Source: Arenicellales bacterium
Lineage (GTDB): Bacteria > Pseudomonadota > Gammaproteobacteria > Arenicellales > JAJDZL01
NCBI GenBank assembly: GCA_965202855.1
Contig: CBDBBP010000004.1
Coordinates: 807,776 to 871,775, forward strand
DNA length: 64,000 nt
Direction of reading: 5' to 3'
Part shown: positions 8,722-46,330 of the stretch, piece by piece
Position numbering within the stretch: the first letter of the stretch is position 1
Layout of the letters: every line of letters begins with the position of its first letter
Notes under the pieces: generated by a model
Told to the model about the DNA's origin: nothing
What the model saw: the letters and a program-made list of their open reading frames with translations, nothing else
Databases searched by the model: none
Made by a program: the position numbers and the translations under genes

Positions 8722-8880
8722 TTGGCTTTTACTCGGGTTTACAAATAAAATTTTGAGTGCGACTGTGTTGCGAAATCGGAAATCAAGTTATTCTAGCACT
8801 TTGATTTCCGATTCCTTACTTCAAGTTGAAATTATACACAGCGAATTAATCACAAAATTCTAACAAGGAACAGATATTTG

Positions 8881-9597
8881 ATGAAGCTTACTGAATTTTC
8901 CACATTAACCTTTGACTGCTACGGCACGCTCATTGACTGGGAAACCGGCATTTACAACGCATTGCAGCCGCTGTTGCAGATGGTTGAGCCTTCACCCAAT
9001 CGAGATGAAAGCTTGAAAATTTTCTCCGAACTGGAATCAGGCATTCAAACAGAATTTCCAGATCTAGTTTACTCACAAGTTCTTCATAAAGTTCACGTCG
9101 CGATCTCCAGACATTTCGATATTGCGGCAGTTGACGAATTGCACACCTATTTTGGCGAATCAGTCTGCCACTGGCCTGCCTTCTCAGATTCAGCCGAATC
9201 CCTTCAATATTTGAAACGGCATTATCGACTTGTCATTCTTTCGAACGTTGATCAAAACAGCTTCAGCCAAAGCAATCAGCATCTCAAAGTGGAGTTTGAC
9301 GACATCTACACAGCTCAAGATATTGGTACATATAAGCCGTCCATCAATAATTTCAAGTACATGCTATCAAGACTTGAGGAATCAGGAATACCAAAGTCTG
9401 AGATATTACACACCGCGCAGAGCTTGTTTCACGACATGGCGCCAGCAACAGATCTCGGGCTGGCAACATGCTGGATCGACAGACGAGCGGGAAAAACGGG
9501 ATCTGGAGCCACCCCAGAGGTGAATCAGCCAGTAAATATTGACTTTCGCTTTGAGTCTCTTGCCGCGATGGTGTCAGCACACAGATCAAGCAGCTGA
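8881..9597 (+). CDS. HAD-superfamily hydrolase, haloacid dehalogenase type II-like
   Basis: N-terminal nucleophile motif FDCYGTLIDW, LSNV (motif II) and YKPS...(K)...D motifs. I prefer the ATG at 8881, which has AAGGAA 10 nt upstream. The ORF track starts 3 nt earlier at a TTG. Confidence 0.8.
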   Translation: MKLTEFSTLTFDCYGTLIDWETGIYNALQPLLQMVEPSPNRDESLKIFSELESGIQTEFPDLVYSQVLHKVHVAISRHFDIAAVDELHTYFGESVCHWPAFSDSAESLQYLKRHYRLVILSNVDQNSFSQSNQHLKVEFDDIYTAQDIGTYKPSINNFKYMLSRLEESGIPKSEILHTAQSLFHDMAPATDLGLATCWIDRRAGKTGSGATPEVNQPVNIDFRFESLAAMVSAHRSSS

Positions 9598-9636: not shown

Positions 9637-11697
9637 TCAGACCGCGGGCATTTCACGCAGAAAGGGCACTTCTCGCTCATCCGCTCGCTCACCGAGCTGC
9701 CGCGCCCAGTGATGACCAGAATACACCGCAGCTGCAATCGTTCCAGGAACGAAACAATCACCAATGCAGTCAGCCGAACGAACACTCGAGTCGGAGAATC
9801 TTGAGCTGTCTGCCATTAGTTGCTGATAGAGTTTGTCGTTGGCCAACTGGGCAGTTACCAACACTGCCGAATCACATTCCAGCGCCAGAGAATCTCGGGT
9901 ATAGACACACTGAATCTCAACTCCGCCTTCATGGACAGCTTTCAATGATCGACAGGTATGAATTGAAACTCCCAAATTCAATAGCCGTTCCTGTATCGCA
10001 TGCTGTTCAAGAGTGAAGTGAGTAGAATGTGAAACATCAGCGGCAGGCGTTACGAGGGAAACACTTGCGCCTTGCTGTCGCAGTTTTTCCGCAATCACTC
10101 CTCCCATATAAAAATGATTGTCGTCATAGACGACAATTTTTCCATTCAATTCGGCTCCGTCCAGGATGTCATCCGCTGAAAACACAGAACTCCGATCCGT
10201 TCCGGGTATGGGAAACAAGTGTTCTTGCCCAACTCCATCTTTGCGCCATTTCGCCCCCGTCGCCAGCACTACGCGCTCAGCTCCGAATTCGAAGATGTCA
10301 TCAGCGTTCAAGGCGCTTGCCGGATATAGATCAACATTGACCAATTGCTGCAGCTGCTGCAGTCGATAATCTCGAACTCTAGACCAGGCGCTCAATCCCG
10401 GCAATTGACTTTCTCGACTGACTCGGCCACCGAAACTGTTTTCAGAATCGACCAAAGTCACTTTATGCCCTCGCTTACCTGAACTGACTGCGCATTCTAA
10501 GCCGGCAGGACCTGCGCCAACGATCAAAATTGAGTCTTGATTCCTGGCCGGAGGGATGATTTCCGGGTGCCATCCACGTCGCCACTCTTCACCCATCGTT
10601 GGATTTTGCGTGCAACGAATGGGAGTGATCGTGTAGTCTCCCGAAACACAGATATTGCAGCCGATACACTCGCGAATATCCTCTAATCTCCCCTCTTCAA
10701 TTTTCTTCGGCAAAAATGGATCGGCGATTGAAGGTCGAGCTGCACCGATCATATCGAGTATGCCCCGCCGAACTTGTGAAACCATGGTATCGGGGGAAGT
10801 AAATCGTCCGACTCCCACGACAGGTTTTGTGGTTACCTGCTTTACTCTCTGTACAAAAGGTTCCTGAAATCCTTCCGGTTGAAAGCGGGAAGTCGCAGAA
10901 TCATTACTCCAGTCACTAACATTGACATCCCATATGTCGGGCAATTCAGCGAGCATGCTGACAACTTCAATACCTTCTTCATCGCACTGCAGTCCGTCAG
11001 AACCCATTAGTTCATCCAACATAAAACGAACAGCAATCGCACAAGAAGCGCCCACGGCTTCTTTGGCATCCAATATCAGCTCTTTCATAAATCTCACACG
11101 ATTTTCGAGGGAGCCTCCATACTCATCCGTTCTCTGGTTGGTCCGGCGTGATAGAAACTGAGTTGGCAGTGTGAGCATGTGGGCAGCATAGACGTAAATG
11201 ATGTCATAGCCAATCGCTTGCGCCCGCTTCGCTGCCTTGCAGTAAATTTTGCGCATCTCCCGAATGTCGCGTTTGGTCATGCCGCGAGCATTGATTGTTC
11301 CAAATCCTTCTATAGCAATCGGTGAAGGAGCAAGCGCTGCTGTTCTTGCATAGTGGTTCGAAGCCTGGCCCCCAGAATGAGCAAGTTCGCAGGCAGCAAG
11401 AGAACCGTGCTCATGTACCGCGTCAACCATTAATCGATGTTGGGGAATATCGGCATCATCCCATAGCCGCTGTTCAGAATATGGGGCGATGTCAGAGGAA
11501 TAATGGATATCACACTCTTCAGTAGAGACGACCGCCCAACCTCCCTCTGCTTTCATTCCGCGCATTGCGGCAGCTGTTTTTGGTCTCAGGTGCCCCATCC
11601 CTGCACAGTGAGGAACCTGGTAAAACCGATTGCGCGCGACAACCGGCCCAATCTGAACCGGCTCAAAAAGAATATCGTAACGCGAGTCTCGAGTCAT
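9637..11697 (-). CDS. Trimethylamine/dimethylamine/histamine dehydrogenase-family Fe-S flavoprotein (amine dehydrogenase, paralog 1)
   Basis: 686 aa. DILFEPVQIGPVVARNRFYQVPHC, ARPSIADPFLPKKIEEGRLEDIRECIGCNICVS...CTQNPTMGEEWRRGWHPE and a C-terminal GAGPAG ADP-binding fold are collinear with Methylophilus TMADH as I recall it. Confidence 0.85.
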   Translation of the reverse strand: MTRDSRYDILFEPVQIGPVVARNRFYQVPHCAGMGHLRPKTAAAMRGMKAEGGWAVVSTEECDIHYSSDIAPYSEQRLWDDADIPQHRLMVDAVHEHGSLAACELAHSGGQASNHYARTAALAPSPIAIEGFGTINARGMTKRDIREMRKIYCKAAKRAQAIGYDIIYVYAAHMLTLPTQFLSRRTNQRTDEYGGSLENRVRFMKELILDAKEAVGASCAIAVRFMLDELMGSDGLQCDEEGIEVVSMLAELPDIWDVNVSDWSNDSATSRFQPEGFQEPFVQRVKQVTTKPVVGVGRFTSPDTMVSQVRRGILDMIGAARPSIADPFLPKKIEEGRLEDIRECIGCNICVSGDYTITPIRCTQNPTMGEEWRRGWHPEIIPPARNQDSILIVGAGPAGLECAVSSGKRGHKVTLVDSENSFGGRVSRESQLPGLSAWSRVRDYRLQQLQQLVNVDLYPASALNADDIFEFGAERVVLATGAKWRKDGVGQEHLFPIPGTDRSSVFSADDILDGAELNGKIVVYDDNHFYMGGVIAEKLRQQGASVSLVTPAADVSHSTHFTLEQHAIQERLLNLGVSIHTCRSLKAVHEGGVEIQCVYTRDSLALECDSAVLVTAQLANDKLYQQLMADSSRFSDSSVRSADCIGDCFVPGTIAAAVYSGHHWARQLGERADEREVPFLREMPAV

Positions 11698-11794
11698 GGA
11701 GGATTACCGTGCGAAAGCAAAAATGCAGTTTGTGGCGATTATCTTGTGTCCGATAAGTTTCTGATCGAATTCCGCACTCGATCAATTCAGAACG

Positions 11795-13189
11795 TCAACC
11801 GTTCCAAAGACCTTCTCGAACCAAATCACTCATCGTCATCTCTATCCCTTGTCTCAAAATATCCACAGTTTCATCCACTTGCTCGCGACTTAGAATCAGA
11901 GGAGGCGAAAGCACGTTCAGATGCGCGATGGGGCGTACGATCAGGCCGAGCGTTTGACAGCGGGCAGCAATTCGATCACCAATTCGAACCGATTCGTCAA
12001 ATATTTCTTTGGTTTCAGGGTTCTTGACGTTTTCCACACACATCATGAAACACTTGCCGCGGACGTCTCCCACGATCGGCAATTCTCGGAGCGTATCCAG
12101 CTGTTCCTCGAAATAAGGCCCTACCTCGCGAACATGTTCACAAATCTGATCACGCTCAATGATCTCGATATTTTTTAGAGCAGCTCGGCAACAAACCGGA
12201 TGTCCGGAATAAGTAAACCCATGTGTGAACAATCCATGCTCGCTAGGAGCGCTGATCACTTCATAAATTTCATCCGATAAAAGAGTCGCGGACAGTGGCA
12301 AATAACCTGATGAAAGTCCTTTTGCAGCAGTAATGATGTCAGGTTTAATTCCGAAGACGGGCTCTGACGACAGCATGTGTCCGATTCGACCGAATCCGGT
12401 TACCACTTCGTCGGAAATATACAAAACTCCATACTCTTTACAAACTTCCAACGTTCGTCGATGATAGCCATCGGGAGGGACAATCACACCGCCCGCGCCC
12501 ATAATTGGCTCAGCGATGAAAGCCGCCACATTATCTTCGCCGAGACTGACGATTTCCTGTTCTAATTCATCAATTAGAAAATCACAGAATTCTTCGTTCG
12601 ACATGTCATCAGGTTTGCGATATGGATTTGGACAAGAAACATAGCTTACCAGTCCAGGCGCCAAATCAAATCCAATGTGATCTGCTTCAACTCCAGTAAG
12701 TGTCATCGTTAGATAGGTGCTGCCGTGGTACGCATCACGCCGAGAGATAATTTTCTTCTTGGATGATTTGCCAAGACGGTTAAAGTAGTAGTGAATAATA
12801 CGTACTGCAGTGTCATTTGCCATGGAACCGCCCGAACCGTAGAACACATGGCTCATATTATCGGGAGCGATTTCGGCCAATTTGGCGGCAAGTTCTGCCG
12901 ACGGAGGAGTAGTCAGATGGTTAAAGGATGAGTAATACGGAATCGCACGCACCTGATCTGCAATGGCCTGCGCCATTTCTTCGCTTCCATATCCTATGTT
13001 CACGCACCATAATCCGCCAATTCCATCAATGTAGCGTCCACCATCGCTGTCATAGACATAGGGGCCATTGGCTTCTGCAACAACTAGTGACCCTTCATCG
13101 TGAAAAACTGAAAAATCAGTCCATGGATGGATGTAATGATCCCTGTCTTTGGTCCATAAATCCTGGGTGTCATATTTTTTTTTCAGCAT
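11795..13189 (-). CDS. Class III (omega) PLP-dependent aminotransferase, amine:pyruvate type
   Basis: 464 aa. Motifs: DGIGGLWCVNIGYG, SGGSMANDTA, ISDEVVTGFGRIG, and PLP-Lys context ITAAKGLSSGY. Confidence 0.9.
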   Translation of the reverse strand: MLKKKYDTQDLWTKDRDHYIHPWTDFSVFHDEGSLVVAEANGPYVYDSDGGRYIDGIGGLWCVNIGYGSEEMAQAIADQVRAIPYYSSFNHLTTPPSAELAAKLAEIAPDNMSHVFYGSGGSMANDTAVRIIHYYFNRLGKSSKKKIISRRDAYHGSTYLTMTLTGVEADHIGFDLAPGLVSYVSCPNPYRKPDDMSNEEFCDFLIDELEQEIVSLGEDNVAAFIAEPIMGAGGVIVPPDGYHRRTLEVCKEYGVLYISDEVVTGFGRIGHMLSSEPVFGIKPDIITAAKGLSSGYLPLSATLLSDEIYEVISAPSEHGLFTHGFTYSGHPVCCRAALKNIEIIERDQICEHVREVGPYFEEQLDTLRELPIVGDVRGKCFMMCVENVKNPETKEIFDESVRIGDRIAARCQTLGLIVRPIAHLNVLSPPLILSREQVDETVDILRQGIEMTMSDLVREGLWNG

Positions 13190-13244
13190 ATCTACCTCTT
13201 TCTAACTCTATAAACAAATGTTTTTTGTGTGTTGAGGAACCCGC

Positions 13245-13664
13245 TCAACAGCAATCGGCGGACTTAACAGCAATGACATCAATTTCCATCACCCACTCTG
13301 GTTTTGCCAACCCTTGTACGATTAGGCCCGTCGATACCGGGAATACACCCTTCAGCCAACACCCAATCACTTGGTAAACCGCCTCGCGATAGGCGCGGTC
13401 TGTAATGTAGACGGTAATCTTGCAAATGTCGCTCAGGCTCGAACCTGCCTCGTCCAGCAATTGCTTTACGTTGCGCATGGCTTGGTCCGCTTGCGCGGCG
13501 GGGTCGCCGGCGCCGACTACATTACCGTCAAAATCACTGCCAACCTGACCCCTTAAAAAAACCAAATTGCCAGCGATCACGACCTGGCACAAGTCATTGT
13601 CCAAAACTTGGTCGGAATAGGTATCTTTGGTGTTGAATTTTCTTAGTCTAACGTGCTCGCTCAT
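13245..13664 (-). CDS. RidA/YjgF/UK114-family reactive-intermediate deaminase
   Basis: 139 aa. GNLVFLRGQVG...AQADQAMRNVKQLLDEAGSSLSDICKITVYI...VMEIDVIAV is the typical RidA fold pattern. Confidence 0.85.
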   Translation of the reverse strand: MSEHVRLRKFNTKDTYSDQVLDNDLCQVVIAGNLVFLRGQVGSDFDGNVVGAGDPAAQADQAMRNVKQLLDEAGSSLSDICKITVYITDRAYREAVYQVIGCWLKGVFPVSTGLIVQGLAKPEWVMEIDVIAVKSADCC

Positions 13665-13681
13665 GGTCTTGTCATCAAAAT

Positions 13682-15133
13682 TTAAGAAATGGTAATTCGG
13701 TCGCTTAAATTTGCCGCTTTTTTGACGAACCTCAGCGCCTCTTTAAAATCGAAGTTCATGTAGACGGCATTCAAATGCGCAAATGGAGGGGACTGTGCGA
13801 ACAGCTGAAACGTCAGTTTATGATTAGCGTAATCGGAATTCAAAAGATCCCTGGCCGTAGCCAGCAATTTACGCCGGTCCTCGAACAGCCACTCTTCATT
13901 GATTGAATAGTATTTCTCCAGCCAAGGCTTAATTTCATCTGTCTGAAAATTTACGTAATCAGGTGTCAAACAGATTTGCCCACCACACAGCTCTCGGGCC
14001 AAATGCATCATATTCGGCAGTTGAGAACATGCTAGAACACGCCCTGTGTAAAGCAGAGATTGGTTGGGCATAAGCAGCCCTTTGGGACTTCGTTGCGCAG
14101 TTGCGATGGAGGCCGTAAGATGAGCGTTGATGCCTTCCCTGTAACACACGAGCTGCGCTAGTTTTTCGCGAACCGCCTGCTGCTTGTCCAGTCCGGTCTG
14201 CCGTACATTGAACATGGCAACGCCAATCAGCATATCAGCAATTTTCTGTATCCTCTGAACAAATGCAAACGCACTATAGCGATGCAATGTCGCTCGAATA
14301 AAAGTGGCTGCTCGGGTGTGCTGGTAGAACAGCACATCCTCCCAGGGAATCAACACATCATCAAATATCATCAATGTATCAATTTCGTCAAATCCGTTCG
14401 CCAGAGGATAATCCTCAGCCGCTGACCGACCTTGAAATCCCGTACGACAAAGGTGAGTTAAACCTTTGGCGTTCATTCGCACAATTACTCCAAGTGCGTA
14501 ATCGGATAGTTTCTGATCACCCCAGTTGGCAATGGTCGGTTTCACGAACGCCTGATCGGCATATGCTGCGGCTGTTTCATACTTCGCGCCACGAATGATC
14601 AATCCAGAATCAGTCTCTTTTACAACGTGCAACAGCATATCTGGATCTTGATCCTGGGGCCGTTTCGAACGGTCTCCTTTCGGGTCGGTATTCGCAGATA
14701 CATGAAAAACATCGTTCTGGATGACAGCATCGATGTGATTTTTGATGTTTTCTGCAAAGCGAGGGTCAATTTCCGATAGTACGTCACTGCCGTCATAGAG
14801 GGACCACATCTCACCAACGGTTTCATCGCCGACACGAGTGACGACACCCCCGATATCATCTAAAATCATGTCGACTGCTTTTCTTCGATGGTGCCAATCC
14901 TCCTGAACGTATGGCATCTTGAGAATGATGGCGCTAGGATCTCCGCTGCTGTCTTTGTAGGTGAGGAATTCACGAGTTTTTTCTTCGTGTTGAAGATCAA
15001 AAATTCTCGCCCGGACATCTACAATGGGCTTGAACGATGGATGGGTTGTCACATCGTCAACCCGCTCACCATCAATCCAGACCTCACGACCGTCTTTCAG
15101 CGACTTCCGATATTGATTGCCTGTACGCAACAT
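13682..15133 (-). CDS. HpaB-family (4-hydroxyphenylacetate 3-monooxygenase oxygenase component-like) flavin-dependent monooxygenase
   Basis: 483 aa. The N-terminus MLRTGNQYRKSLKDGREVWIDGERVDDVTTHP and overall length are typical of the HpaB / 4-hydroxybutyryl-CoA dehydratase superfamily. Confidence 0.8.
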   Translation of the reverse strand: MLRTGNQYRKSLKDGREVWIDGERVDDVTTHPSFKPIVDVRARIFDLQHEEKTREFLTYKDSSGDPSAIILKMPYVQEDWHHRRKAVDMILDDIGGVVTRVGDETVGEMWSLYDGSDVLSEIDPRFAENIKNHIDAVIQNDVFHVSANTDPKGDRSKRPQDQDPDMLLHVVKETDSGLIIRGAKYETAAAYADQAFVKPTIANWGDQKLSDYALGVIVRMNAKGLTHLCRTGFQGRSAAEDYPLANGFDEIDTLMIFDDVLIPWEDVLFYQHTRAATFIRATLHRYSAFAFVQRIQKIADMLIGVAMFNVRQTGLDKQQAVREKLAQLVCYREGINAHLTASIATAQRSPKGLLMPNQSLLYTGRVLACSQLPNMMHLARELCGGQICLTPDYVNFQTDEIKPWLEKYYSINEEWLFEDRRKLLATARDLLNSDYANHKLTFQLFAQSPPFAHLNAVYMNFDFKEALRFVKKAANLSDRITIS

Positions 15134-15308: not shown

Positions 15309-15337
15309 AAAAAAAAGGCCACCAGAGGCTGGTGGCC
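15309..15337 (-). terminator. Rho-independent terminator after the DUF1127 gene
   Basis: On the minus strand GGCCACCAG-CCT-CTGGTGGCC (9 bp perfect stem) is followed by a run of eight T. It lies 38 nt past the stop at 15375. Confidence 0.85.
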
Positions 15338-15374: not shown

Positions 15375-15677
15375 TCAGGCAGCAAGTCGGTCTGTCGGCA
15401 CTGCATGTCCCTCAACCGGAGTGATATTGGTAATTGTTGGTTCGACCACTCTGTTTGTTGCCCTATTTAAGTTTGAGTTGACAACATCCTTTATTGAATG
15501 TCTCGGAATGCCAATGTCGTATAGTTGAGCGTCATTCAAGCTCTCCAGTGTTCGGATTGCTTTTCTTCGTGTTACAGAATTTTTGTACGCAAGCCATACT
15601 CGACTGGTCATGCTTCCGACTTTAATGTATTGGTTAGCACGCCGATATGGGCGGATATCAATGGTGTTGTTTATCAT
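15375..15677 (-). CDS. DUF1127-domain small protein
   Basis: The core ...RRKAIRTLESLNDAQLYDIGIPRHSIKD matches the DUF1127 signature (L..LsD..L.DIGi.R.dI). The real start may be the internal Met (MTSRVWLAYK...). Confidence 0.7.
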   Translation of the reverse strand: MINNTIDIRPYRRANQYIKVGSMTSRVWLAYKNSVTRRKAIRTLESLNDAQLYDIGIPRHSIKDVVNSNLNRATNRVVEPTITNITPVEGHAVPTDRLAA

Positions 15678-20387: not shown

Positions 20388-21092
20388 ATGAAAAATTCGA
20401 TTCGAGTCATAATGTTTGATGTTTTCGGCACCGTTGTTGACTGGCGTTCGAGCATCGCGAAGGAAATAAGACAGGTGCCTGAACTTACTGGCATAAACGG
20501 TGAAGATTTCGCCGATAATTGGCGTGCAAAATATCAGCCTGCGATGGAACGGATTCGCAGCGGTGGACGAAACTGGACGAAACTGGATGATCTGCATTAT
20601 GAAAATTTAATGGAGCTGCTCGATGAATTGGGGATTGAAAACTTGAGTGACAGCGCCAAGCTTCATCTCAATCATGCATGGCACCGACTCGAACCATGGC
20701 CCGATGCAGTTGAAGGCCTGACTCGATTAAAGTCAGAATTTACGATTACAACACTATCAAATGGAAATGTGTCCCTGCTTTTGAACATGGCAAAACGAGC
20801 CAATCTCCCTTGGGACATGATTTTAGGAGCAGAAGTGGTCAAACACTATAAGCCACAGCCGGAATCCTATCTGAAATCAGCCGCATTGATTGATGTGGAC
20901 CCTACGCACTGCATGCTGACGGCGGCGCACAACTCTGATCTGGTTGCCGCTGCAAATTGTGGATTTCGAACGGCCTTTGTCGCCCGTCCTACAGAATATG
21001 GTCCAAATCAGAAAACAGATCTGGAACCAACTGCACAGTATGACTTCGTTGCAAGTGATTTCATTGATCTCGCTGTTCAGCTAGGATGCTGA
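20388..21092 (+). CDS. HAD-superfamily hydrolase, 2-haloacid dehalogenase (type II)-like
   Basis: 234 aa. Motifs: FDVFGTVVDW, TTLSNGN, KHYKPQPESY and TAAHNSDLVAAANCGF. Confidence 0.8.
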   Translation: MKNSIRVIMFDVFGTVVDWRSSIAKEIRQVPELTGINGEDFADNWRAKYQPAMERIRSGGRNWTKLDDLHYENLMELLDELGIENLSDSAKLHLNHAWHRLEPWPDAVEGLTRLKSEFTITTLSNGNVSLLLNMAKRANLPWDMILGAEVVKHYKPQPESYLKSAALIDVDPTHCMLTAAHNSDLVAAANCGFRTAFVARPTEYGPNQKTDLEPTAQYDFVASDFIDLAVQLGC

Positions 21093-22482: not shown

Positions 22483-24145
22483 CTAAAGTTTCTGGGTTGA
22501 AAATTGGCTGGAAAACAAGACCTAAGTAATTGATTTAATGTATAAAGTAAGCCTCGAATGGTATATAATGTTGTTTTTGAAAAATCATCAACAAACCAAA
22601 CGAGGCTAAAGCATGAATCATTGTACCAGTAAATCTGAACTGCCACAAAATATTGAACCGACGGTGCAGGATCGACAGTTGCGCATCGACAATCTTTTCG
22701 CCCAGATGTGGGCGGCATTGGGTTTGAACGGACACTTGGGTCGAGCCGGCATGACCAAGCGCAGCGGTCTGAGCGCACGCGAAACGGTGTTTCTGCTGTT
22801 GATGTGGCGTTGGCTGCGAGGCTCTTCGATCGCCATGTTCTGTCGTCACTCCATGCAGGAATTTTTTCAAGCGCGCAAAGATGCGGTGTATGAGTTTTTC
22901 AAGCGTGAAGACCTCAACTGGCGCGGTCTGAACTACCGCGTGGCTCGGGCGGTCTATCAGCGCTGCGGTTTCAAGCGTTCGTCGCAGCGTGCCTTTGTGA
23001 TCGATGACACCATTGTCAGTCGTCGCGGCAAGAAGATGGAAGGGGTATCGGCACACTATGATCACTGCTTGGGGAAAACCGTGATCGGACAGCAGTTGGT
23101 GACCTTGGGGCTGGTGGCAGACGACGGTTTTTTACCGCTGGATTCGGAACTGTTCATCAGTTCCAAGAAAGTGCAGGGATTGAATCACAAGCACCGAGAT
23201 GGGCGCAGCGTGGTGGCTCGGCGGTATCGCTGTGCCAAGCGCCAAAGCAAGCCACAGATGGTCATTGGCATGTTGAAAAAAGCGATGCGCATGGGCTTTG
23301 AGGCACCGTATTTAGTGGCCGATTCGTGGTATGGAACCAAGCGCATCATCCAAGCTGCGCTGGAATTGAAGTTGACGGCGGTGCTGCGCATGAAAAGAGG
23401 GAACTTAAAGTATTGCGTGCTCCAGGCCGATGGCAACGAGGTGTTGCTGGACGTCAAGCAGCTGTATGCCAAGGCTGTACGCAAAAAGTGGCGCAAAGTC
23501 GCAGATCTGCCGTGGCGAGTGGTCTCTTGTACGGTACGGCTGAATCTTGAAGAGGATGAGAGCAAGCCAGAACGGTGGCAGCCGGAGAAGCTGCTGTTCG
23601 TGCGCGGCTTGAATGACAACGATAAAAACCCCAGCAGCAAGAACTGGGCTCTGTTTCTGTCCACTGATCTTCAGTTGAGCGCCGAACAAATGCTGCAGAC
23701 CTATAGTCTGCGTTAAAGCGTGGAGGTTTATTTCAAAGAAGCCAAGCAGCACTTGGGGTTTTTGTCCGAACAGACTCGCAGCTTCGCCTCGTTCATCGCC
23801 TCCATCCATCTGTGTGCGATCCGTCATCTGCTGCTCAGCTATGCGGCTTTAAGCGAGCACGGACACAATGTCCCTGAAGTGCGCGAACAGATCAAAGAAC
23901 AACTCGATTCGATCTGTTTCGCCCGCCGCCTGTGGAACTACTTCCGCAGCTTGGTGTACCATTCTATCCGCGCCAGCAAAACCCTGACCGAGCGCAGCCT
24001 TGACTTCGTGATGCAAGCCATTGACCGAGAAGTCGAACAATTCTTGGAGAGATCACTTCAATTGGATGTCCTCAGCCTACAAGTGGAGGATGATCCAGCT
24101 GTTTTGTCGGGATAATTTAGATGATTTTGAATCCAGAAACTTGAG
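22483..24145 (+). mobile_element. IS4-family insertion sequence (inactive copy)
   Basis: Imperfect terminal inverted repeats: CTAAAGTTTCTGGGTTGAAAAT at 22483-22504, versus the reverse complement of 24124-24145, CTCAAGTTTCTGGATTCAAAAT (19/22). They enclose one transposase reading frame. No target-site duplication is visible. Confidence 0.65.
22613..24115 (+). pseudogene. IS4-family DDE transposase interrupted by one in-frame TAA
   Basis: ORFs 22613-23716 and 23720-24115 are in the same frame, separated by TAA at 23717-23719. The stop falls inside the IS4 Y(2)R(3)E(6)K signature: YSLR*SVEVYFKEAKQ. Confidence 0.8.
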
Positions 24146-24509
24146 GTATGTAGTCTTTGAAATAAGCTCCTTTTACATTTCTGAAATTTTGTAAGCTAGC
24201 GACCTACTTATTTTTGAAATACCCACATCTTTGCTTGATATCCGAGCCTTCGGTAAGGTAACACAGATATCAATAACAAAAAATGTGCTCTCAATTAGTC
24301 GACCTAAAAGAAAGTTTTCGAGTGAAATTGAAGAGATAACAGCGAATACGAGCCATTACAAATTCGGTTTACGAGACACTCAAAACAACCGAAATTGTAT
24401 TTTACACTTGCCGTGCAATATTCCCGCTTCCTTCCGGACGCATCAAACAACGTTGAAATTTCTCGATAATTCTCGTGTTTCAAGTTGCAAGTTTCTATTG
24501 ATCAGAATT

Positions 24510-24881
24510 TCAGACCAATTCTTGTAAATCCACATTCAGTGCTTTAGCAAGTTTAGTCAATGTTTGGGTTGATCCAGTACGTCTACCTGCCTCAATCTTT
24601 GAAAGATAAACAGCATTGATTCCAGCCAGCCCAGCAAGCTGTTTCTGAGTCATACCGCGATAATTGCGGTATACCTTGACACCATTTTCACCAGCAAGCA
24701 AACGGTCAACCACATCAATCGGAAACGACTCCTCATCAGCAAGTTTAGCGCTGTCATATAGTTCTTCATCGCTTAGTTCGATATCCGAATAATATTTGCT
24801 TAATCTTTTGTACAGTCGCCATGGAATAACAGCAAATGCTGGTTGTCCTTTATCGTCGAAAATCACTTGCGGTTCGGTCAT
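24510..24881 (-). CDS. Antitoxin with C-terminal XRE-type HTH (HigA-like position)
   Basis: 123 aa. The C-terminal GMTQKQLAGLAGINAVYLSKIEAGRRTGSTQTLTKLAKALNV is a classical Cro/C1 HTH. It starts 11 nt downstream of the toxin ORF. Confidence 0.8.
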   Translation of the reverse strand: MTEPQVIFDDKGQPAFAVIPWRLYKRLSKYYSDIELSDEELYDSAKLADEESFPIDVVDRLLAGENGVKVYRNYRGMTQKQLAGLAGINAVYLSKIEAGRRTGSTQTLTKLAKALNVDLQELV

Positions 24882-24892
24882 TATTTTCTCTC

Positions 24893-25153
24893 CTATGGAT
24901 TGTAAATATCTCTCCTAAGGACGATGCGCAATACTTCAATTTCGCAGTTCTGGTCGTCTCTATCAAAAATAACACGCCAATCTCCTGATCGCAATCTAAA
25001 ACCTTGTCGGCCTTGTAACTTCACTACATCGATATCGTTCCGTTGTGGGTCTTCGACTAGCTTTGCCAATCTGCTACGTACGCGATTTGCATCTCGTTTA
25101 CGCATTCTTCTGAAAGATTTCAGTGCTTGCTTCCTTACTTTCAGATTGTACAT
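24893..25153 (-). CDS. RelE/ParE-superfamily type II toxin (toxin-first, HigB-like arrangement)
   Basis: 86 aa. LQGRQGFRLRSGDWRVIFDRDDQNCEIEVLRIVLRRDIY matches the RelE/ParE core pattern (.G....R.R.GdyR.i......i.V..i.hR...Y). Confidence 0.8.
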   Translation of the reverse strand: MYNLKVRKQALKSFRRMRKRDANRVRSRLAKLVEDPQRNDIDVVKLQGRQGFRLRSGDWRVIFDRDDQNCEIEVLRIVLRRDIYNP

Positions 25154-25319
25154 AGCGTTAAGCCTTGCTATAAGAAATTCTTACCGCTATACAAAGTCAA
25201 ATGCTAAGGACATGAAAAACGTTAAATCCCTAATCCGAAATTAGCAATGACAATATAGAAAAAAGCCTTGTAATATTAAAGTGTTAAAGCATTCTTCAGG
25301 ATCCTCTAATGTGTGATCA

Positions 25320-25496
25320 ATGGTAACAACCCTAAAAAATACAAGGCGTATGAACATTCTACCCTGTGAAACAGCTGACAGCAATCGCAACTTGACCTCC
25401 CACGCTGGTTTGGTAGTGCTTGCGGATTTATTCAAACGCATGGGATTGAACGAATTGGTGGATCATTTCATGCCCGCGCCAGGCAGCAATCGCGGC
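25320..25496 (+). pseudogene. N-terminal stub of an IS1380-like transposase
   Basis: SNRNLTSHAGLVVLADLFKRMGLNELVDHF..PGSNRG resembles the NLTS.AGL N-terminus of IS1380-family transposases such as ISEcp1. It breaks off after about 59 codons. Confidence 0.4.
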
Positions 25497-25504
25497 TGCC
25501 TGAG

Positions 25505-26326
25505 GTGGAGCTTTTGGTGCGAGCCAAGTATGATCGAAGTCAGGGCAAAGGCAAGCCGAAGATGTTCGCCGCGATCCGGGCACAGCCCGCGCAAGCGCGG
25601 TTGGAAGTGCCGGTCATGGCACAATCCGCGCGGCGCAGCACTCGCAGTCAGAAGGTGCGCCTGAAGCGGCCCAAGCGGATGGCGACGGTCGAGTTGCGCT
25701 GGCGTGCGGTCGAGATTCAGCCGACCAGCGGCTTTGCCAATGAGAAACCGATCCAGATGAATCTGGTACATGTGTATGAACCTGAAGCGCCGGCGGCTTC
25801 AAGCGCACTGGAGTGGCTGCTGCTGACCAGCTTGGCGGTGACCAATGTCGACGAGGCCAAGGCAGTGGTGGAGCGTTATCTTTTGCGTTGGCGCATTGAG
25901 GATTGGCATCGGATTCTGAAGTCCGGCTGCAAAGCGGAGTTTTTGCAATATCGAAAGGGCGAACGCATCGAACGGGCGGTCACCATCAATGCCGTCATCG
26001 CTTGGCGGCTGGCGGCCATGACTTTGCTAGGGCGGGAAACTCCAGAATTGCCGATGCAGGTGCTGTTCAGCAACACTGAAATCGGAGTGTTGGAGGATTT
26101 CGCATGCGAAAATCGCTTGAAAGTGCCGGACAATGCCGCTACCGGTGTGTTGACGATGGCCATGAACGCCGGTTATATGAACCGCAAGAATGATCCACCG
26201 CCCGGTTACAAGAAAATCTGGGAAGGATATATCCGATTGGAAAATATGTCGCAAGCTTATGACTTAGCCTATCACATGATGATACGAAAGCAAGGCTGGT
26301 TACACGATAAGTTAAGTCCTGACTAA
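25505..26326 (+). pseudogene. C-terminal half of a Tn5/IS50-like (IS4-family) transposase
   Basis: LEWLLLTSLAVTNVDEAKAVVERYLLRWRIEDWHRILKSGCKAE...VIAWRL parallels Tn5 Tnp LKWLLLTSEPVESLAQALRVIDIYTHRWRIEEFHKAWKTGAGAE. The N-terminal part carrying the two catalytic Asp residues is missing. Confidence 0.8.
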
Positions 26327-27031
26327 ATTTGTACGTAATAGGTAGCCGGCACCCCTTCGCCGGTTCTTGTCTCAGATGGAAAATACAGGCCCTCCCAGGT
26401 TTCCTGGCAGTCCATCCTGCAACTTTGCGCCGTTCCAAAGACCCCGGACGGCCTCCAAAACTCCTCGCCTCTGTCGGCGCTCAGAGTGCTGCTCCCACTA
26501 ATTAGAAAATGAAAGCACCGACATTTATTCATATCGAGGCTCAATAGGATGCTTCATTGCCTGCTGCGTACGCTTCACGACTAACGTTGCCGTCAGCCAT
26601 GCAACACTCGCTTCCGGCTGGCTGGCTGTGCCTTTGCCGGACGGGAGTTGAACCCGCTGGACTGCTATGAATGGTTTCAGTTATTTCATATCATCCTCCA
26701 TCCCAGAACTTAATCCTGGCGCAACTAATTTCGAACTTGGGCGGTAATCCACAATTCGAATCGGCACAACATATTTTTAAATTCCTTACAAATTTGCTTC
26801 CCGAAGGGATGTAAATATCGTTGATGAAACAATCGCAATTTCGGAAACCTCGGCCTTTGCACCTTTTTTGATCTGTTATCGAGCTTGATTTCTGACATCA
26901 AGCAGCAATTCTCGCATTAATTTGAAAAACAACAGCGGAATCAGCGAAAATCCTCTATGGTGGTTGTGGTATATCGGAAGCACGCCTTTCAAGGTCTTTC
27001 AAGGTGTACACCTGTGGGACAAACAGCCTCG

Positions 27032-29104
27032 TCAATCAGCCAATGATGCCACTTCACGTCGGAAAGGCAGTGAATCGATTTGCCTGGAGCCGTCAAGCTC
27101 TCTAGCGTAACGATGGCCTGCATAGACTGCCCACGCAATGGGACCTGGGGCTTCAGCATCTCCAATCACGCTGATTGACTGAATACCTGCATCCGCCCAA
27201 TCATCTTGTTTAGTTTTAAGTTCTTGCCAAAGTTCGTCTTTAGGCGTACGCGAGGTTACAAGAACCACTGAGTCAGCTGCAAGCTCTGCTTCCCGACCAG
27301 TGTAACTACAAGCAGTAATAACCCGATCATTTCGTATACGGGTGACAGTGCGATTGAGTCGAAGCTCAACACCAAGTTCAACCAGTCGATTGTGTATTGC
27401 TCCCTGTTCAAGAGTATTTCTTGACCAGTCGGAAACATAGGCAGAAGGCGTCACTAAAGTTACTTGATTGCCATTTTGCACCAGCAGTTCCGCCAGCACT
27501 CCGCCCATGTAGTAGTGGTCGTCATCAAAAAGCACAACTTTGCCGCTACCAGGCAGTTGACCCGCCATCAAGTCATCGGGCGTGAAGATTGGCATGGCCG
27601 GGTCAAGCGGCATGGGAGTTACATGAAAGCGAGCAACCCCATCTCTTCGCCAAACTGAACCGGTGGCAACTGCAACATGTTCAAATCCAAATTCGAGGAC
27701 CATTTCCGCTGAAAGCTCACTGTCGAAGAAAATCTCCACATTGGCCATTTGGCTGAGTTGGTATTGTCGATAGTCTTCAACCCGTCCCCACGTAGCCAAG
27801 CCTGGCAGCTTGCACTCACGGGCTACACGTCCACCCAGATGCGTATTGGCTTCGGCTACTATCACTGCATAGCCTCTTAAGCCTAGCACTCTAGCGGCTT
27901 CCATCCCTGCTGGCCCTGAACCGATGATCAGAACGCTATCGCATTCTCCTTTGGGTGGCATATGCTCTGGGTGCCAACCCTTGCGCCATTCCTCCATGAA
28001 TGTGGGATTTTGGGTGCAGCGTGAGATCGACATAGTCATATCGCCAGAGATGCAAATGTTACAGCCGATACATTCACGAATATCCTCAATTCGACCTTCC
28101 TCGATCTTTTTCGGAAGGAAGGGGTCAGCAATAGACGGTCTGGCACAACCGATCAAATCCAGGATTCCGTTCCTTACCTGCTTGGCCATAGTATCCGGCG
28201 AGGTGAACCGCCCTACACCAACAATGGGTTTGGATGTGAGCGATTTTATGCCTTCGACGAGATCTTGTTGGGCAGCTTCCGGTAAAAAGCGCGACGGTCC
28301 GGAACAGTCTTCCCAAGAGCCGTGAGCCAAATCCCAGAGGTCGGGAAGATCACCATGCATCTCAATCATATCTCGGACTTCGGCATTGGAGAATCCCAGG
28401 TTACCTACAGTCTCGTGAAGTGAAATTCGCAGCGAGATTGCACATGAATCGCCTACTTCGTCCTTGCCCACCTCTACCAATTCACGCATCAGACGCGAGC
28501 GGTTTTCCAGACTGCCACCATATTCGTCGCTGCGGTGATTTGTAGCGCGGGAGAGAAAATGCTGAATGATGCCGAATCCATGGGCGCCGTAAAGGCAAAT
28601 CAAGTCGAAGCCTGCCTGTTTAGCCCGACGATAGGCATTGCGGTGCCAGCGCAAAAGATCTTGGATATCTTGCTTGTCCATGGCTCGAGCTTGAACCGGG
28701 TCATTGGTGAAAGTACGAATCGGGAGCGGTGTCGGCGCGCGAGGCACCTCCCGGGTGTAGAAGTTCGGGCCATTTATACCCGAGTAGGCTAGCTGAATGC
28801 CGGCTAGAGCACCATGTTCATGAATTGCGTCGGCCATTCGAGCTAACATTGGGATGTCACCATCATCCCAAAGGCGTAGCTCAATGAAAGGAGTGATTTC
28901 CGAGGTGTGATGCATCTCACACTGCTCGGTGAAAACCACCCCCCAGCCACCCTCAGCTTTGATTCGGCGCATCTCTGCTACTGCCGAGGGATCCCGATAA
29001 CCGCCGCCATTGCAATGTGGCACCTGAAAAAAACGATTACGGGAAGTTACCGGTCCGATCTGGACCGGTTCAAACAGCACATCATACCGTGGGTCACGAG
29101 TCAT
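27032..29104 (-). CDS. Trimethylamine/dimethylamine/histamine dehydrogenase-family Fe-S flavoprotein (amine dehydrogenase, paralog 2)
   Basis: 690 aa. Motifs: DVLFEPVQIGPVTSRNRFFQVPHC, ARPSIADPFLPKKIEEGRIEDIRECIGCNICIS...CTQNPTFMEEWRKGWHPE and GSGPAG. By eye it is roughly 55-60 percent identical to paralog 1. Confidence 0.85.
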   Translation of the reverse strand: MTRDPRYDVLFEPVQIGPVTSRNRFFQVPHCNGGGYRDPSAVAEMRRIKAEGGWGVVFTEQCEMHHTSEITPFIELRLWDDGDIPMLARMADAIHEHGALAGIQLAYSGINGPNFYTREVPRAPTPLPIRTFTNDPVQARAMDKQDIQDLLRWHRNAYRRAKQAGFDLICLYGAHGFGIIQHFLSRATNHRSDEYGGSLENRSRLMRELVEVGKDEVGDSCAISLRISLHETVGNLGFSNAEVRDMIEMHGDLPDLWDLAHGSWEDCSGPSRFLPEAAQQDLVEGIKSLTSKPIVGVGRFTSPDTMAKQVRNGILDLIGCARPSIADPFLPKKIEEGRIEDIRECIGCNICISGDMTMSISRCTQNPTFMEEWRKGWHPEHMPPKGECDSVLIIGSGPAGMEAARVLGLRGYAVIVAEANTHLGGRVARECKLPGLATWGRVEDYRQYQLSQMANVEIFFDSELSAEMVLEFGFEHVAVATGSVWRRDGVARFHVTPMPLDPAMPIFTPDDLMAGQLPGSGKVVLFDDDHYYMGGVLAELLVQNGNQVTLVTPSAYVSDWSRNTLEQGAIHNRLVELGVELRLNRTVTRIRNDRVITACSYTGREAELAADSVVLVTSRTPKDELWQELKTKQDDWADAGIQSISVIGDAEAPGPIAWAVYAGHRYARELDGSRQIDSLPFRREVASLAD

Positions 29105-39906: not shown

Positions 39907-40610
39907 ATTCCGAGATAGGCTTTTTTGACGTGCTCATTGTCCGCTAGCGCATCAGCCGCGTCTTGCAGCGTAATTCTGCCATTCTCCAGAACGTAGCCAT
40001 AGTCCACCAGCTTGAGCGCTAAATCAGCATTTTGTTCAACCAAGATTACAGTTACGCCTTGGCTGTTGATTTCCTGCATGATTTCACCAATTTCTTGAAC
40101 AATTAGGGGGGCGAGTCCTAGAGAGGGTTCGTCCAACAATAACACTTTCGGCCGCGACATCAGTGCACGACCAATTGATAACATCTGTTGCTCCCCACCG
40201 CTTAAAGTTCGCGCCTCTTGATTCTGACGTTCCTTCAAGACTGGAAAGTGCCTGTATATCTCCTGCAAATCTTGATTGATTCGATTTTGGTCTTTGTATA
40301 TGAAAGCACCCAGCATTAAGTTTTCTATCACTGACAGATCTTTGAATACACGGCGCCCCTCAGGCACATGTGCGATGCCAAGTTTCAAAATCTGGTCGGC
40401 AGGAATATTATTGAGAGGTTGATCATCAACTGAAATTTGCCCAGCACTTGGACGAACAAGTCCTGAAATAGCTCGGAGTGTCGTACTTTTACCGGCTCCG
40501 TTTGATCCAATTAACGTAATAAATCCACCATCCTCGACCGTAAAGCTGATACCTTTTAACGCTGCGACATTGTGATAGTTCACATGCAAATCGGTTACGT
40601 TCAGTTTCAT
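39903..40610 (-). CDS. ABC transporter ATP-binding protein, LivF-like (HAAT family)
   Basis: 235 aa. Walker A GSNGAGKST, signature LSGGEQQML, Walker B LLLDEPSLGL. Confidence 0.9.
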   Translation of the reverse strand: MKLNVTDLHVNYHNVAALKGISFTVEDGGFITLIGSNGAGKSTTLRAISGLVRPSAGQISVDDQPLNNIPADQILKLGIAHVPEGRRVFKDLSVIENLMLGAFIYKDQNRINQDLQEIYRHFPVLKERQNQEARTLSGGEQQMLSIGRALMSRPKVLLLDEPSLGLAPLIVQEIGEIMQEINSQGVTVILVEQNADLALKLVDYGYVLENGRITLQDAADALADNEHVKKAYLGI

Positions 40611-40648
40611 ATCAAGTCTCTTCGTTCGGTCAGCACTGTTTTGTAAAA

Positions 40649-41401
40649 CTAATTTCCACCTAGATACGCCTGAATCACATCTGGATTATTGCGAACACGT
40701 TCGGGTGATCCGTCATCCAAAACCGTACCAAAATTCAATACTGTCAGTCGGTCACAAAGGCCCATCACGGCTTTCATATTATGTTCAACGAGAACAACCG
40801 TGATTCCGGATTCTCGTACATTTTGCGTCAACTCCATCATATGACGAGTTTCTTCTGGATTCATTCCCGCAAACGGTTCGTCTAGCAGTAACAACTTAGG
40901 TTTTGAAGCCAGTGCAATCGCTACCGCCAGAGTTCGCTGGAATCCCAGCGGCAATTCCGATGCCAGCTGATCTCGCCGCTCCCAGAGAGACATAAATTCG
41001 AGTACTTCGCGAGCGGTATCGTGTGCGTCTTTTTGTTTATTTTGATCAAGACCCATCAATGCGGAAAATACGTTGGTTTTGGCCTGATTATGATTACCGA
41101 TAAGAACATTGTCGAACACGCTCAATTCTTGAAACAACGTTGTTTCCTGAAAAGTACGTACTACACCTAAACTAGCGATTCGAGAAGGTTTCTTGCCCCT
41201 TAGACTGACTCCGTTAAACAAAACATCTCCATCGGTAAACGAGAGAAATCCCGCGATCATCTTGAATGTCGTGCTCTTCCCTGCGCCATTTGGTCCGATC
41301 AGTCCATGAATATCGCCTTCATTAACGTGAAAACTCACGTTGTTCACCGCAACCAATCCACCGAACTTTTTTGTTAAGTGATTTACATCAAGTATTGCCA
41401 T
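40649..41401 (-). CDS. ABC transporter ATP-binding protein, LivG-like (HAAT family)
   Basis: 250 aa. Walker A GPNGAGKST, Walker B LLLDEPFAGMNP, and the LivG-type C-terminal extension. Confidence 0.9.
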   Translation of the reverse strand: MAILDVNHLTKKFGGLVAVNNVSFHVNEGDIHGLIGPNGAGKSTTFKMIAGFLSFTDGDVLFNGVSLRGKKPSRIASLGVVRTFQETTLFQELSVFDNVLIGNHNQAKTNVFSALMGLDQNKQKDAHDTAREVLEFMSLWERRDQLASELPLGFQRTLAVAIALASKPKLLLLDEPFAGMNPEETRHMMELTQNVRESGITVVLVEHNMKAVMGLCDRLTVLNFGTVLDDGSPERVRNNPDVIQAYLGGN

Positions 41402-43231: not shown

Positions 43232-43321
43232 TGAATAATCCTCAGATCAATTCAATTTACAGCAATACAAAAAGGGGAGAGAAGCTTAGTCTCTCCCCCT
43301 TTCTTAGTTATGCAGGCAGAT

Positions 43322-44602: not shown

Positions 44603-44702
44603 ATAATTTCACCTTTTACACATTTGTTAATACTTACCTTACTCTTACATAAAATAATACGATATTCTTGATAAATTTTCACTGGTAAGAAATCAAATTT
44701 GT

Positions 44703-44725
44703 GTTGAATTAGCAACAAATTCAAC
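44703..44725. promoter_or_regulatory. Candidate operator palindrome in the divergent tmm / ABC promoter region
   Basis: GTTGAATT-agcaaca-AATTCAAC: perfect 8 bp inverted arms. It lies 101 nt upstream of the binding-protein start and 149 nt upstream of the tmm start. Confidence 0.35.
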
Positions 44726-44873
44726 GAGTCGGAATCCATCGTTATAATTGAATGACGGATGAATTTAAGTTGATTGGCATTTCTAAGATGAACTGTCAGG
44801 AACCAAATCTAATTCATAATGAAAATAACTTGTCATTTTAAAAAGGAAACAAAATAAAAAATGGAGTAGTCAC

Positions 44874-46310: not shown

Positions 46311-46330
46311 TGGTTCGGCAATAATTGAGA

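Follow-up and report, generated by a model that had tools for sequence, protein, structure and literature searches.

A four-gene operon of an Arenicellales bacterium that looks like a clade-specific variant of the Hin route of histamine catabolism

The 64,000-nucleotide stretch of Arenicellales DNA analysed here (the window; contig CBDBBP010000004.1, positions 807,776 to 871,775) carries four same-strand genes that encode, in order of transcription, an HpaB-type oxygenase, a protein of the Rid family, a class-III transaminase and an enzyme of the TMADH/histamine-dehydrogenase family (Table 1). This operon is probably a clade-specific rearrangement of Hin, the catabolic pathway for histamine and imidazole-4-acetate (ImAA), with the HpaB-type oxygenase standing in for the monooxygenase HinF. 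It looks like a variant of a known pathway and not a wholly new one, and its chemistry likewise looks like known Hin chemistry. The substrates of the oxygenase, the transaminase and the dehydrogenase, and the step at which the Rid-family protein acts, are inferred.

HinL and the exchange of oxygenases in hin-like modules

The four open reading frames (ORFs) are real genes rather than chance ORFs, because they are long, give very strong profile matches and are kept in synteny. The gaps between them in the ORF listing are 17, 55 and 97 nt, and the four are presumably co-transcribed. Scanning the HpaB-like protein against one genome per species gave 80 loci, all at least 70% identical (cited below, where they have to be told apart, by our locus numbers). 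The closest 11, with 77-90% HpaB identity, are metagenome-assembled genomes (MAGs) of Arenicellales (Gammaproteobacteria). The order HpaB-Rid-transaminase-dehydrogenase is found in all 11 of these close relatives, with gaps of about 13-120 nt apart from one exception taken up below, and was not seen in the other 69 HpaB loci.

Is the Rid-family protein a RidA? Although it matches Pfam Ribonuc_L-PSP (E 4.6e-22), it falls short of the cut-offs for both RidA (TIGR00004, 60.3 bits against 106.25) and RutC (48.1 bits against 169.1), and solved Rid structures, whether canonical RidA or generic Rid, score no higher than 48 bits. Its identity to the proteins in the HinL position of Pseudomonas knackmussii and P. 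maumuensis is 67%. The position of RidA Arg105, which we take to be the residue that binds the imino-acid carboxylate, is occupied by Ser in the window protein and in the whole HinL group, according to an alignment with E. coli RidA. By these comparisons the protein is an orthologue of HinL and not a RidA in the strict sense. Its gene lies directly 3' of the oxygenase gene, across the 17-nt gap, and is the only hinL in the window. The same adjacency holds widely: an orthologue of HinL is encoded immediately 3' of the HpaB-like gene at 74 of the 80 loci, and at 63 of the 69 that lie outside the Arenicellales clade.

Published accounts describe an entry part of the Hin pathway made up of hinK (PA0218, an ImAA-sensing LysR regulator), hinD (aldehyde dehydrogenase), hinA (APC permease) and hinC (class-III transaminase) (PMC8231116, PMC2542419). 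They also describe hinFLHG (PA5393-PA5390), which takes ImAA to aspartate, has hinG annotated as 'probable peptidic bond hydrolase' and is induced 240- to 2200-fold by histamine (PMC8231116). In Table 3 of PMC6467879, which draws on the primary paper, HinF is listed as an FAD-monooxygenase (EC 1.14.13.5), HinL as an enamine deaminase, and HinH and HinG as amidases, the latter with EC 3.5.1.8. The histamine transporter of P. aeruginosa, HinA (PA0220), is an APC-family permease (PMC2542419), and PDB entry 6M5F is HinK (PMC11495319).

A search with the M20 protein of Pseudomonas sp. UMAB-08 (locus L055) returned many Pseudomonas orthologues at 74-77% identity. In P. knackmussii B13, genes for an FMO-like protein of 445 aa, a Ribonuc_L-PSP protein, a DUF1028 protein and an M20 protein follow one another in one operon, with LysR, Aminotran_3 and Aldedh genes adjacent; P. 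maumuensis has the same FMO, Rid, DUF1028 and M20 genes as two divergent pairs. Because these Pseudomonas operons (L087, L089) fit hinFLHG in order and annotation, HinL can be equated with the Rid protein, HinH with DUF1028 and HinG with M20. Strain UMAB-08 has HinL, HinH and HinG proteins that are, respectively, 90-93%, 75% and 74% identical to those of the two operons, and its HinF position holds an HpaB-like gene, with a divergent flavin reductase gene. Just beyond hinG is a gene for a LysR protein that matches PDB 3FZV/6M5F with 585 bits over 299 aa; it is divergent from genes for a PuuC-like aldehyde dehydrogenase and a class-III transaminase, which matches the layout of hinK, hinD and hinC in strain PAO1. 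Since unrelated oxygenases here occupy the same position, beside orthologous downstream genes and the same regulator and within one genus, the exchange bears the signature of a non-orthologous displacement of the FMO-type HinF by the HpaB type.

The 69 loci outside the clade have much the same company: DUF1028 genes in 55, LysR genes in 37, HpaC/RutF-type flavin reductases in 32 and ArgE-like M20 genes in 25, with GbcA-like Rieske oxygenases in 17 and PhyH dioxygenases in about 10. HutD-family genes occur at six loci. The LysR proteins beside HpaB modules are HinK-like, at 35-47% identity in more than 40 loci; for instance, the LysR of a Paracoccus module has HinK as its best PDB match, with 199 bits against 85 for the next. 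On annotated Paracoccus plasmids these neighbours appear as an ABC transporter, "4-hydroxyphenylacetate 3-hydroxylase family", "RidA family", "DUF1028", "argE", LysR, a flavin-reductase fusion and HutD-family. HinL itself is 55-67% identical across HpaB-type and FMO-type modules.

In L085 (16950-18122), and also in L086, L042, L045, L069 and L073, a 390-aa protein encoded beside HpaB-HinL-HinH-HinG combines a RutF/HpaC-type flavin reductase with a substrate-binding domain of the LysR type. The fusion suggests a supply of reduced flavin that is gated by an effector. A similar substrate-stimulated reductase belongs to the p-hydroxyphenylacetate hydroxylase of Acinetobacter.

Two other loci, L016 (5449-18714) and L015, have a long operon in which both oxygenase types occur together with PhyH, DUF2390, a PotD-type ABC transporter and, where other modules have M20, an HDAC-like amidohydrolase. 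The DUF1028 gene and the arginase (formiminoglutamase)-family gene that adjoins it lie on the opposite strand. In L016 a LysR gene is followed by the series FMO, PhyH, DUF2390, HpaB, HinL, ABC transporter and HDAC-like amidohydrolase, and then by DUF1028 and the arginase family. The hydrolases of these two loci would be an alternative downstream set for the same chemistry.

What, then, is the oxygenase? Over its full length it matches Pfam HpaB_N and HpaB (E 4e-83 and 5e-53), but it fails both HpaB equivalog cut-offs, with 238.5 bits for TIGR02309 (cut-off 480.2) and 157.8 bits for TIGR02310 (cut-off 885.2). The best PDB match is Thermus thermophilus HpaB, at only 183 bits. In T. thermophilus numbering the active site retains Arg100 but has Glu for Tyr104 and Ser for His142, a pattern found without exception in the 83 family members compared; we take these three to be the phenol-binding residues of the T. 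thermophilus enzyme. The invariant Glu/Ser pattern and the two failed cut-offs together indicate that the protein is not a phenol hydroxylase. We propose, by inference, that it is a two-component monooxygenase acting on ImAA, and so the functional counterpart of HinF. The family is widespread, and identity stays at 70% or more among members from Proteobacteria, Gaiellales, Thermomicrobiales, Bryobacterales and SAR11. The Arenicellales clade fully retains 184 of 205 near-invariant columns and has no radical clade-wide changes, and so gives no sign of neofunctionalisation; both HpaB and HinL are under strong purifying selection there and so are not decaying remnants.

Two other ideas about the family were tried and set aside. 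The pairing of a 4-hydroxybutyryl-CoA dehydratase (AbfD) with a GABA transaminase was rejected because AbfD-type structures score 86-102 bits, below HpaB, and the partners of the family are C-N hydrolases. Pyrrole-2-carboxylate, homarine, trigonelline and other N-heterocycles were considered as substrates of HpaB-Rid-DUF1028-M20 modules; the literature gave nothing, and they were dropped after the link to HinK, HinL, HinH and HinG emerged. A literature search of incomplete coverage found no paper on an HpaB-type ImAA oxygenase or on the Glu65 dehydrogenase subfamily described below.

These results bear on what a preliminary description, made from the letters of this DNA alone, had said about the proteins. 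Its four family assignments are borne out by full-length profile matches and are valid at the superfamily level. "HpaB-type oxygenase" is sound at that level but not in the strict sense, given the failed equivalog cut-offs and the loss of Tyr104 and His142, and "RidA" was too specific a label. Its statement that the operon does not match the Hin route was mistaken, for the Rid-family protein is an orthologue of HinL and the HpaB-like gene stands in the HinF position of a widespread hinFLHG-like module. The candidate biogenic-amine or polyamine catabolic module that it put forward was rightly seen as a module for biogenic-amine catabolism.

The transaminase and the dehydrogenase

Entry into the Hin pathway is known to be by class-III transaminases and by histamine-type dehydrogenases, and the operon has a member of each family. 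The transaminase matches Aminotran_3 (E 3.4e-88) and exceeds the cut-off of NCBIfam PRK07036 (733 bits against 618). Its nearest solved structures, at about 400 bits, are amine/putrescine:pyruvate omega-transaminases (3i5t, 6gwi, 5ti8, 9j4z), and it is only 33-36% identical to the hin-linked transaminases of Pseudomonas. Two independent arrangements place homologues with 61-70% identity in or beside HpaB-HinL-DUF1028 clusters: two of them lie directly upstream of the cluster in an alphaproteobacterial MAG (L070), and one lies downstream in another Arenicellales MAG (L059). This association speaks for a HinC-like entry role, which the window enzyme may have.

The dehydrogenase matches Pfam Oxidored_FMN and Pyr_redox_2 over its full length. 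Among solved structures it is closest to the histamine dehydrogenases 6de6 (760 bits) and 3k30 (756 bits), followed by 6l6j (689 bits) and TMADH (561 bits). The catalytic equipment is intact, with Cys35 for 6-S-cysteinyl-FMN, the CxxCxxC...C cluster motif and the Tyr176/His179/Asp270 triad. The residues proposed to form the histamine pocket are Gln65, Ile74, Phe77, Glu79, Asn115, Tyr/Phe181, Trp267 and Asp358 (PMC10180351). The operon enzyme keeps Ile74, Glu79, Trp267 and Asp358 but, like the rest of its clade, departs from this list at the other four positions, with Glu at 65, Tyr at 77, Leu at 181 and, as a residue that varies in the clade, Gln at 115. Its pocket has acidic side chains at three positions (Glu65, Glu79 and Asp358). 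Glu65 and Leu181 are shared with 6l6j, which we take to be an N-methyl secondary-amine dehydrogenase.

A metagenome search for relatives of the operon dehydrogenase gave 80 loci at 55-62% identity, the best no higher than 62%. Most of these relatives have the signature Glu65/Leu181/Asn269, and the operon enzyme belongs with them in a large uncharacterised subfamily so defined. A class-III transaminase gene is near the dehydrogenase gene in 19-23 of these 80 loci, in some directly upstream as in the window, and loci such as L093-L095 have the transaminase and then the dehydrogenase without any hin gene. The two thus form a recurrent pair that in the Arenicellales clade has been joined to HpaB-HinL. 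Other neighbours in the metagenomic loci are tandem dehydrogenase paralogues, PotD-type ABC transporters, PuuA-like Gln-synt_C proteins, arginase-family proteins, MttB and BetI-type regulators. At one of the 80 HpaB loci (L062), a dehydrogenase of the histamine type, with Gln65, is divergently adjacent to the HpaB module.

Two or three tandem TMADH-family paralogues with differing pocket signatures occur in several of the metagenomic loci L117, L125, L131-L146 and L170, often with a class-III transaminase. One type has Glu65 and another is TMADH-like, with Tyr65 and Asp74; the tandem genes look like multi-amine dehydrogenase arrays.

A canonical histamine dehydrogenase is encoded elsewhere in the window. 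It agrees with 6de6 at each of the twelve pocket and catalytic positions that were scored, and directly upstream of it, on the same strand, is the APC-family permease gene; the two look like a HinA-like unit for uptake and oxidation, separate from the operon though probably part of the same physiological system. An orthologue of the FMO-type HinF is also present. Its gene is solitary, with no adjoining hinL, hinH or hinG, and is flanked by insertion-sequence remnants, among them a TnpB/Cas12f-like TNB-domain fragment at 35095-35514 (+). These three genes lie about 12-22 kb from the operon, and because the window has a canonical histamine dehydrogenase, an APC permease and an FMO-type HinF, the organism seems clearly equipped to handle histamine-type compounds. 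Since the pocket of the operon dehydrogenase differs from those of validated histamine dehydrogenases and a canonical enzyme is encoded 15 kb away, the preferred amine of the operon enzyme is probably not plain histamine. The preliminary description had argued from two amine-removing enzymes to two amines. That may still be so: the transaminase-dehydrogenase pair recurs on its own in metagenomes, and the canonical enzyme suggests a different amine for the one in the operon.

A proposed route and its rivals

How might the four proteins work together? An imidazole-ethylamine (histamine or a close derivative) would be converted to imidazole-4-acetaldehyde either by the transaminase, with the amino group passing to pyruvate or 2-oxoglutarate, or by the dehydrogenase, through oxidative C-N cleavage with the electrons passing to a respiratory acceptor. 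An unlinked aldehyde dehydrogenase would then give ImAA, the ring of which the HpaB-type oxygenase, replacing HinF, would hydroxylate to imidazolone-acetate with reduced flavin from an unlinked reductase. HinL would act on a reactive C=N intermediate, in the tautomerisation/hydrolysis of the imidazolone or in the deimination of N-formimino-L-aspartate; because its gene invariantly adjoins that of the oxygenase in both module types, an early action is suggested. HinH, as a DUF1028 amidase, would hydrolyse the ring amide, and deformylation by HinG, an M20 formyl-aspartate deformylase, would then leave aspartate, formate and ammonia as the end products. These last two enzymes would be encoded elsewhere in the genome, or replaced; no gene for either lies within 10 kb in any of the 11 clade genomes.

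Several points weigh against this reading. The preliminary description had listed an aldehyde dehydrogenase, a flavin reductase, a ring-cleavage enzyme and a regulator as missing from the operon, and the list was accurate: tblastn (E<0.01) found no match within the 64-kb window to an aldehyde dehydrogenase, a flavin reductase, DUF1028 (HinH), an M20 deacylase (HinG), LysR/HinK or HutD. The four-gene order is confined to a clade in which the housekeeping neighbourhood (tig-clpPX/leuCD) is fixed, and could reflect inheritance rather than selection for co-function; the exceptional gap in the clade, 414 nt between transaminase and dehydrogenase in L005, bears on co-transcription. No experimentally studied member of the HpaB-type family was found in the literature. 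Four of the eight proposed histamine-contact residues differ in the operon dehydrogenase, whereas the paralogue at 27032-29104 matches all of them. In the 80 metagenomic loci the dehydrogenase gene is never beside genes for HpaB, HinL, HinH or HinF, and its neighbours there look like those of polyamine, guanidino or quaternary-amine catabolism. Finally, the window itself has both an FMO-type HinF and an HpaB-type oxygenase, some 20 kb apart, and the two types share one operon in L015 and L016, both Arenicellales, and in L060. It is this co-occurrence that chiefly cautions against simple isofunctionality, as it argues that the two oxygenases are not strictly redundant.

The presence of two oxygenase types and two dehydrogenase types in one window fits a parallel pathway, in which the operon would serve a related imidazole or heteroaryl amine and histamine itself would be left to the canonical dehydrogenase, the APC permease and the FMO-type HinF. 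Candidates would be N-alpha- or ring-methylated histamines, or other marine imidazole amines, with the TMADH-family enzyme dealkylating secondary and tertiary amines beyond the reach of a transaminase. The residues shared with 6l6j accord with this, as does the fact that the loci in which both oxygenases share an operon often have PhyH or a GbcA-like Rieske oxygenase, which could demethylate. Yet the HpaB type is the sole oxygenase by HinL-HinH-HinG in at least 60 loci, and the near-identical ImAA-sensing HinK of L055 points to ImAA as the substrate. The identity of HinL across the two module types, moreover, implies that the downstream intermediates are the same, and the parallel substrate cannot be named from sequence. 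We consider such a pathway unlikely. Also tentative, and in our judgement rather doubtful, is a broader proposal: that the HpaB clade is an unrecognised global two-component imidazole-ring monooxygenase, and the operon a route for a different marine imidazole amine (for example, N-methylated histamines) by way of the Glu65-type dehydrogenase and the transaminase.

Could the operon instead be two units side by side? The transaminase and the Glu65 dehydrogenase would then handle a polyamine or diamine such as putrescine, agmatine, 1,3-diaminopropane or spermidine, and HpaB-HinL would be an ancestral Hin-like remnant upstream. The recurrence of the pair without hin genes in metagenomes speaks for this, as do its PotD-, PuuA-, arginase- and BetI-type neighbours there and the acidic pocket; in addition, known histamine dehydrogenases accept agmatine, putrescine and 1,3-diaminopropane (PMC10180351). 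The gaps within the operon are tight, however, with no terminator between the two pairs of genes in the window, and the gene order has been kept in all 11 relatives despite 10-23% divergence of HpaB. The strong purifying selection on HpaB and HinL in the clade is likewise at odds with a remnant, and such transaminases and a dehydrogenase of the histamine type have joined HpaB modules independently (L059, L062, L070). We therefore rate a separate polyamine unit as improbable. A tyramine/4-hydroxyphenylacetate (4-HPA) route, in which the dehydrogenase or transaminase would make 4-hydroxyphenylacetaldehyde from tyramine and a true HpaB would hydroxylate 4-HPA, was rejected as having next to no chance of being right, since its support from the Pfam domains and from a 4-HPA 3-hydroxylase as best solved homologue is outweighed by the equivalog scores, the altered active-site residues and the lack of ring-cleavage or other hpa genes here and in the 80 related loci, where the partners are Rid, DUF1028, M20 and a HinK-like regulator.

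If the Hin reading of the operon is right, three very common families whose names say little, now "4-hydroxyphenylacetate 3-hydroxylase family protein", "RidA family protein"/DUF1028 and "acetylornithine deacetylase" would be moved to ImAA/histamine catabolism. Together they span hundreds of species, with soil Caballeronia and Paracoccus plasmids at one end of the range and marine SAR11 and Arenicellales at the other. For enzymology it would mean a clean non-orthologous displacement, with an HpaB fold in place of an FMO at one step and both types within Pseudomonas. The large histamine-dehydrogenase-like subfamily with its altered, more acidic pocket bears on marine amine turnover and on histamine biosensors. 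The finding overturns nothing and is less exotic than the preliminary description supposed; it would be a concrete reannotation of a very widespread gene set.

Known systems, operon boundaries and the rest of the window

The operon resembles the Hin system of P. putida U and P. aeruginosa PAO1 (hinK, hinD, hinA, hinC; hinFLHG; hinI) in the proposed amine-to-aldehyde entry by a class-III transaminase and in the position of HinL right after the oxygenase, and the wider HpaB-type modules have HinH, HinG and a HinK-like LysR in hinFLHG order. It differs from Hin in that the oxygenase is a two-component enzyme of the HpaB superfamily and not a single-component FMO-type HinF, a TMADH-family dehydrogenase has been added, linkage to HinH, HinG, HinD and HinK is lacking, the transaminase shares no more than 33-36% identity with those linked to hin in Pseudomonas, and there is one operon where Hin has four loci. 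With the histamine dehydrogenases of Nocardioides simplex (3K30) and Rhizobium sp. 4-9 (6DE6; EC 1.4.9.1) the operon enzyme shares the three-domain architecture, the FMN cysteine, the 4Fe-4S cysteines, the Tyr-His-Asp triad and Glu79, Trp267 and Asp358, but it has four changed contact residues and falls in a separate subfamily, and the true orthologue of those enzymes is the one at 27032-29104.

The likeness to HpaBC and the group-D two-component flavin monooxygenases lies in the fold, the domains, Arg100, the aryl-acetate nature of the proposed substrate and the HpaC/RutF-type reductase adjacent in related loci. The sub-threshold equivalog scores and the changes at Tyr104 and His142 set the protein apart, as do the lack of a linked reductase in the clade and partners that are C-N hydrolases rather than catechol-cleavage enzymes; in the 32 related loci with a flavin reductase, ring-cleavage genes are never present. 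The Rut system (RutA, RutF, RutC, RutB) offers a parallel of another kind: a reduced-flavin oxygenase attacks an N-heterocycle and is followed by a Rid protein and amidohydrolases, and a RutF-like reductase is found in related loci. That parallel, drawn in the preliminary description for the oxygenase and the Rid protein, is a fair one. The proteins are not orthologous, however, the oxygenase having an HpaB fold in place of the luciferase-like RutA, the heterocycle differs and there is no other rut gene, so that a Rut-type pyrimidine pathway was rejected as anything but an analogy, in keeping with the RutC score.

Table 1. Positions of the operon genes and of other features in the window
Feature	Position	Strand	Remarks
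HpaB-superfamily gene	13682-15133	-	483 aa, ATG start
Rid-family gene	13245-13664	-	139 aa, ATG start
Class-III transaminase gene	11795-13189	-	464 aa, ATG start
TMADH/histamine-dehydrogenase-family gene	9637-11697	-	686 aa, ATG start
Intrinsic-terminator-like site	15337-15307	-	Stem GGCCACCAG/CTGGTGGCC, then T8 run
Sigma-70-like promoter candidate	15181-15153	-	TTTGCA-17-TAAAAT, 9/12 matches; consensus match only
Convergent HAD-superfamily hydrolase	8878-9597	+	Pfam HAD_2; TIGR01428 126.9 bits (cut-off 125.4)
Canonical histamine dehydrogenase orthologue	27032-29104	-	1162 bits to Rhizobium 6de6, 875 to 3k30
APC-family permease	29333-30727	-	TIGR00909 amino-acid transporter; ethanolamine-permease-like matches
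FMO-type HinF orthologue	35597-36880	-	Pfam Pyr_redox_3/Lys_Orn_oxgnase/FMO-like; 70% identity over 421 aa to P. knackmussii HinF

On its upstream side the operon is bounded by a terminator-like site just 3' of a 100-aa ORF (15375-15677). The stem, at 15337-15317, has 9 bp, of which 7 are G-C pairs, and the site is predicted to end transcription of that ORF and so to insulate the operon. The gene for the HpaB-like protein, the first of the operon, follows the promoter candidate of Table 1 and has an AGGAG ribosome-binding site 5' of its ATG. When the regions upstream of the first gene were aligned for 12 clade genomes, no operator motif could be claimed, the alignment being too divergent (34% column identity). 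Downstream, the convergent gene encodes a HAD type-II (haloacid-dehalogenase-like) hydrolase. All 11 clade genomes have a homologue of it no more than 10 kb from the operon, and in nine of them it is the convergent neighbour; the window has a second HAD hydrolase at 20388-21092. Beyond these the flanks are housekeeping genes, with a tRNA, tig, clpP and clpX on one side and leuC and leuD on the other, and the tig/clpPX neighbourhood is common to all 11 clade genomes. The preliminary description had this architecture right: its four ORF coordinates and three gaps agree exactly with the ORF listing, the terminator that it placed at 15309-15337 corresponds to the stem and T8 run, its convergent downstream gene is the HAD hydrolase, and the conserved unit that it envisaged, to be checked by co-occurrence, was recovered with the same order and short gaps in the close Arenicellales relatives.

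Just downstream of the gene for the canonical histamine dehydrogenase, 22613-26650 is rich in mobile elements. Transposases of the DDE_5 type (22613-23716) and, truncated, of the Tn5 type (25505-26326) are followed there by a match to group II intron D1-D4 RNA (RF02005, 127 bits) at 26432-26650 on the minus strand, without an obvious adjacent intron-encoded protein. Between the permease and HinF genes lie about 4.7 kb (30800-35500) in which ORFs reach at most 185 aa and those tested gave no Pfam matches; the stretch may consist of decayed genes or be non-coding, and tblastn found no decayed hinH, hinG, hinD or flavin reductase gene in this interval.

Farther along, a methylated-amine cluster at 37534-48113 comprises a DUF1989+GCV_T fusion protein of 790 aa, a branched-chain amino acid-type ABC transporter (39903-44602), an FMO-like protein that is Tmm-like (44874-46211) and a Glu_synthase-domain protein (46740-48113). 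The fusion has what we take to be the architecture of the trimethylamine N-oxide demethylase Tdm. The organism appears, from its gene content, to be specialised in scavenging amines. Finally, the segment at 57500-59500 has a G+C content of 58.6%, against about 47% for the window, and long overlapping ORFs on both strands, of which only a 422-aa ORF on the minus strand matches a Pfam family (DUF418). A foreign insert is one possible explanation for this segment.

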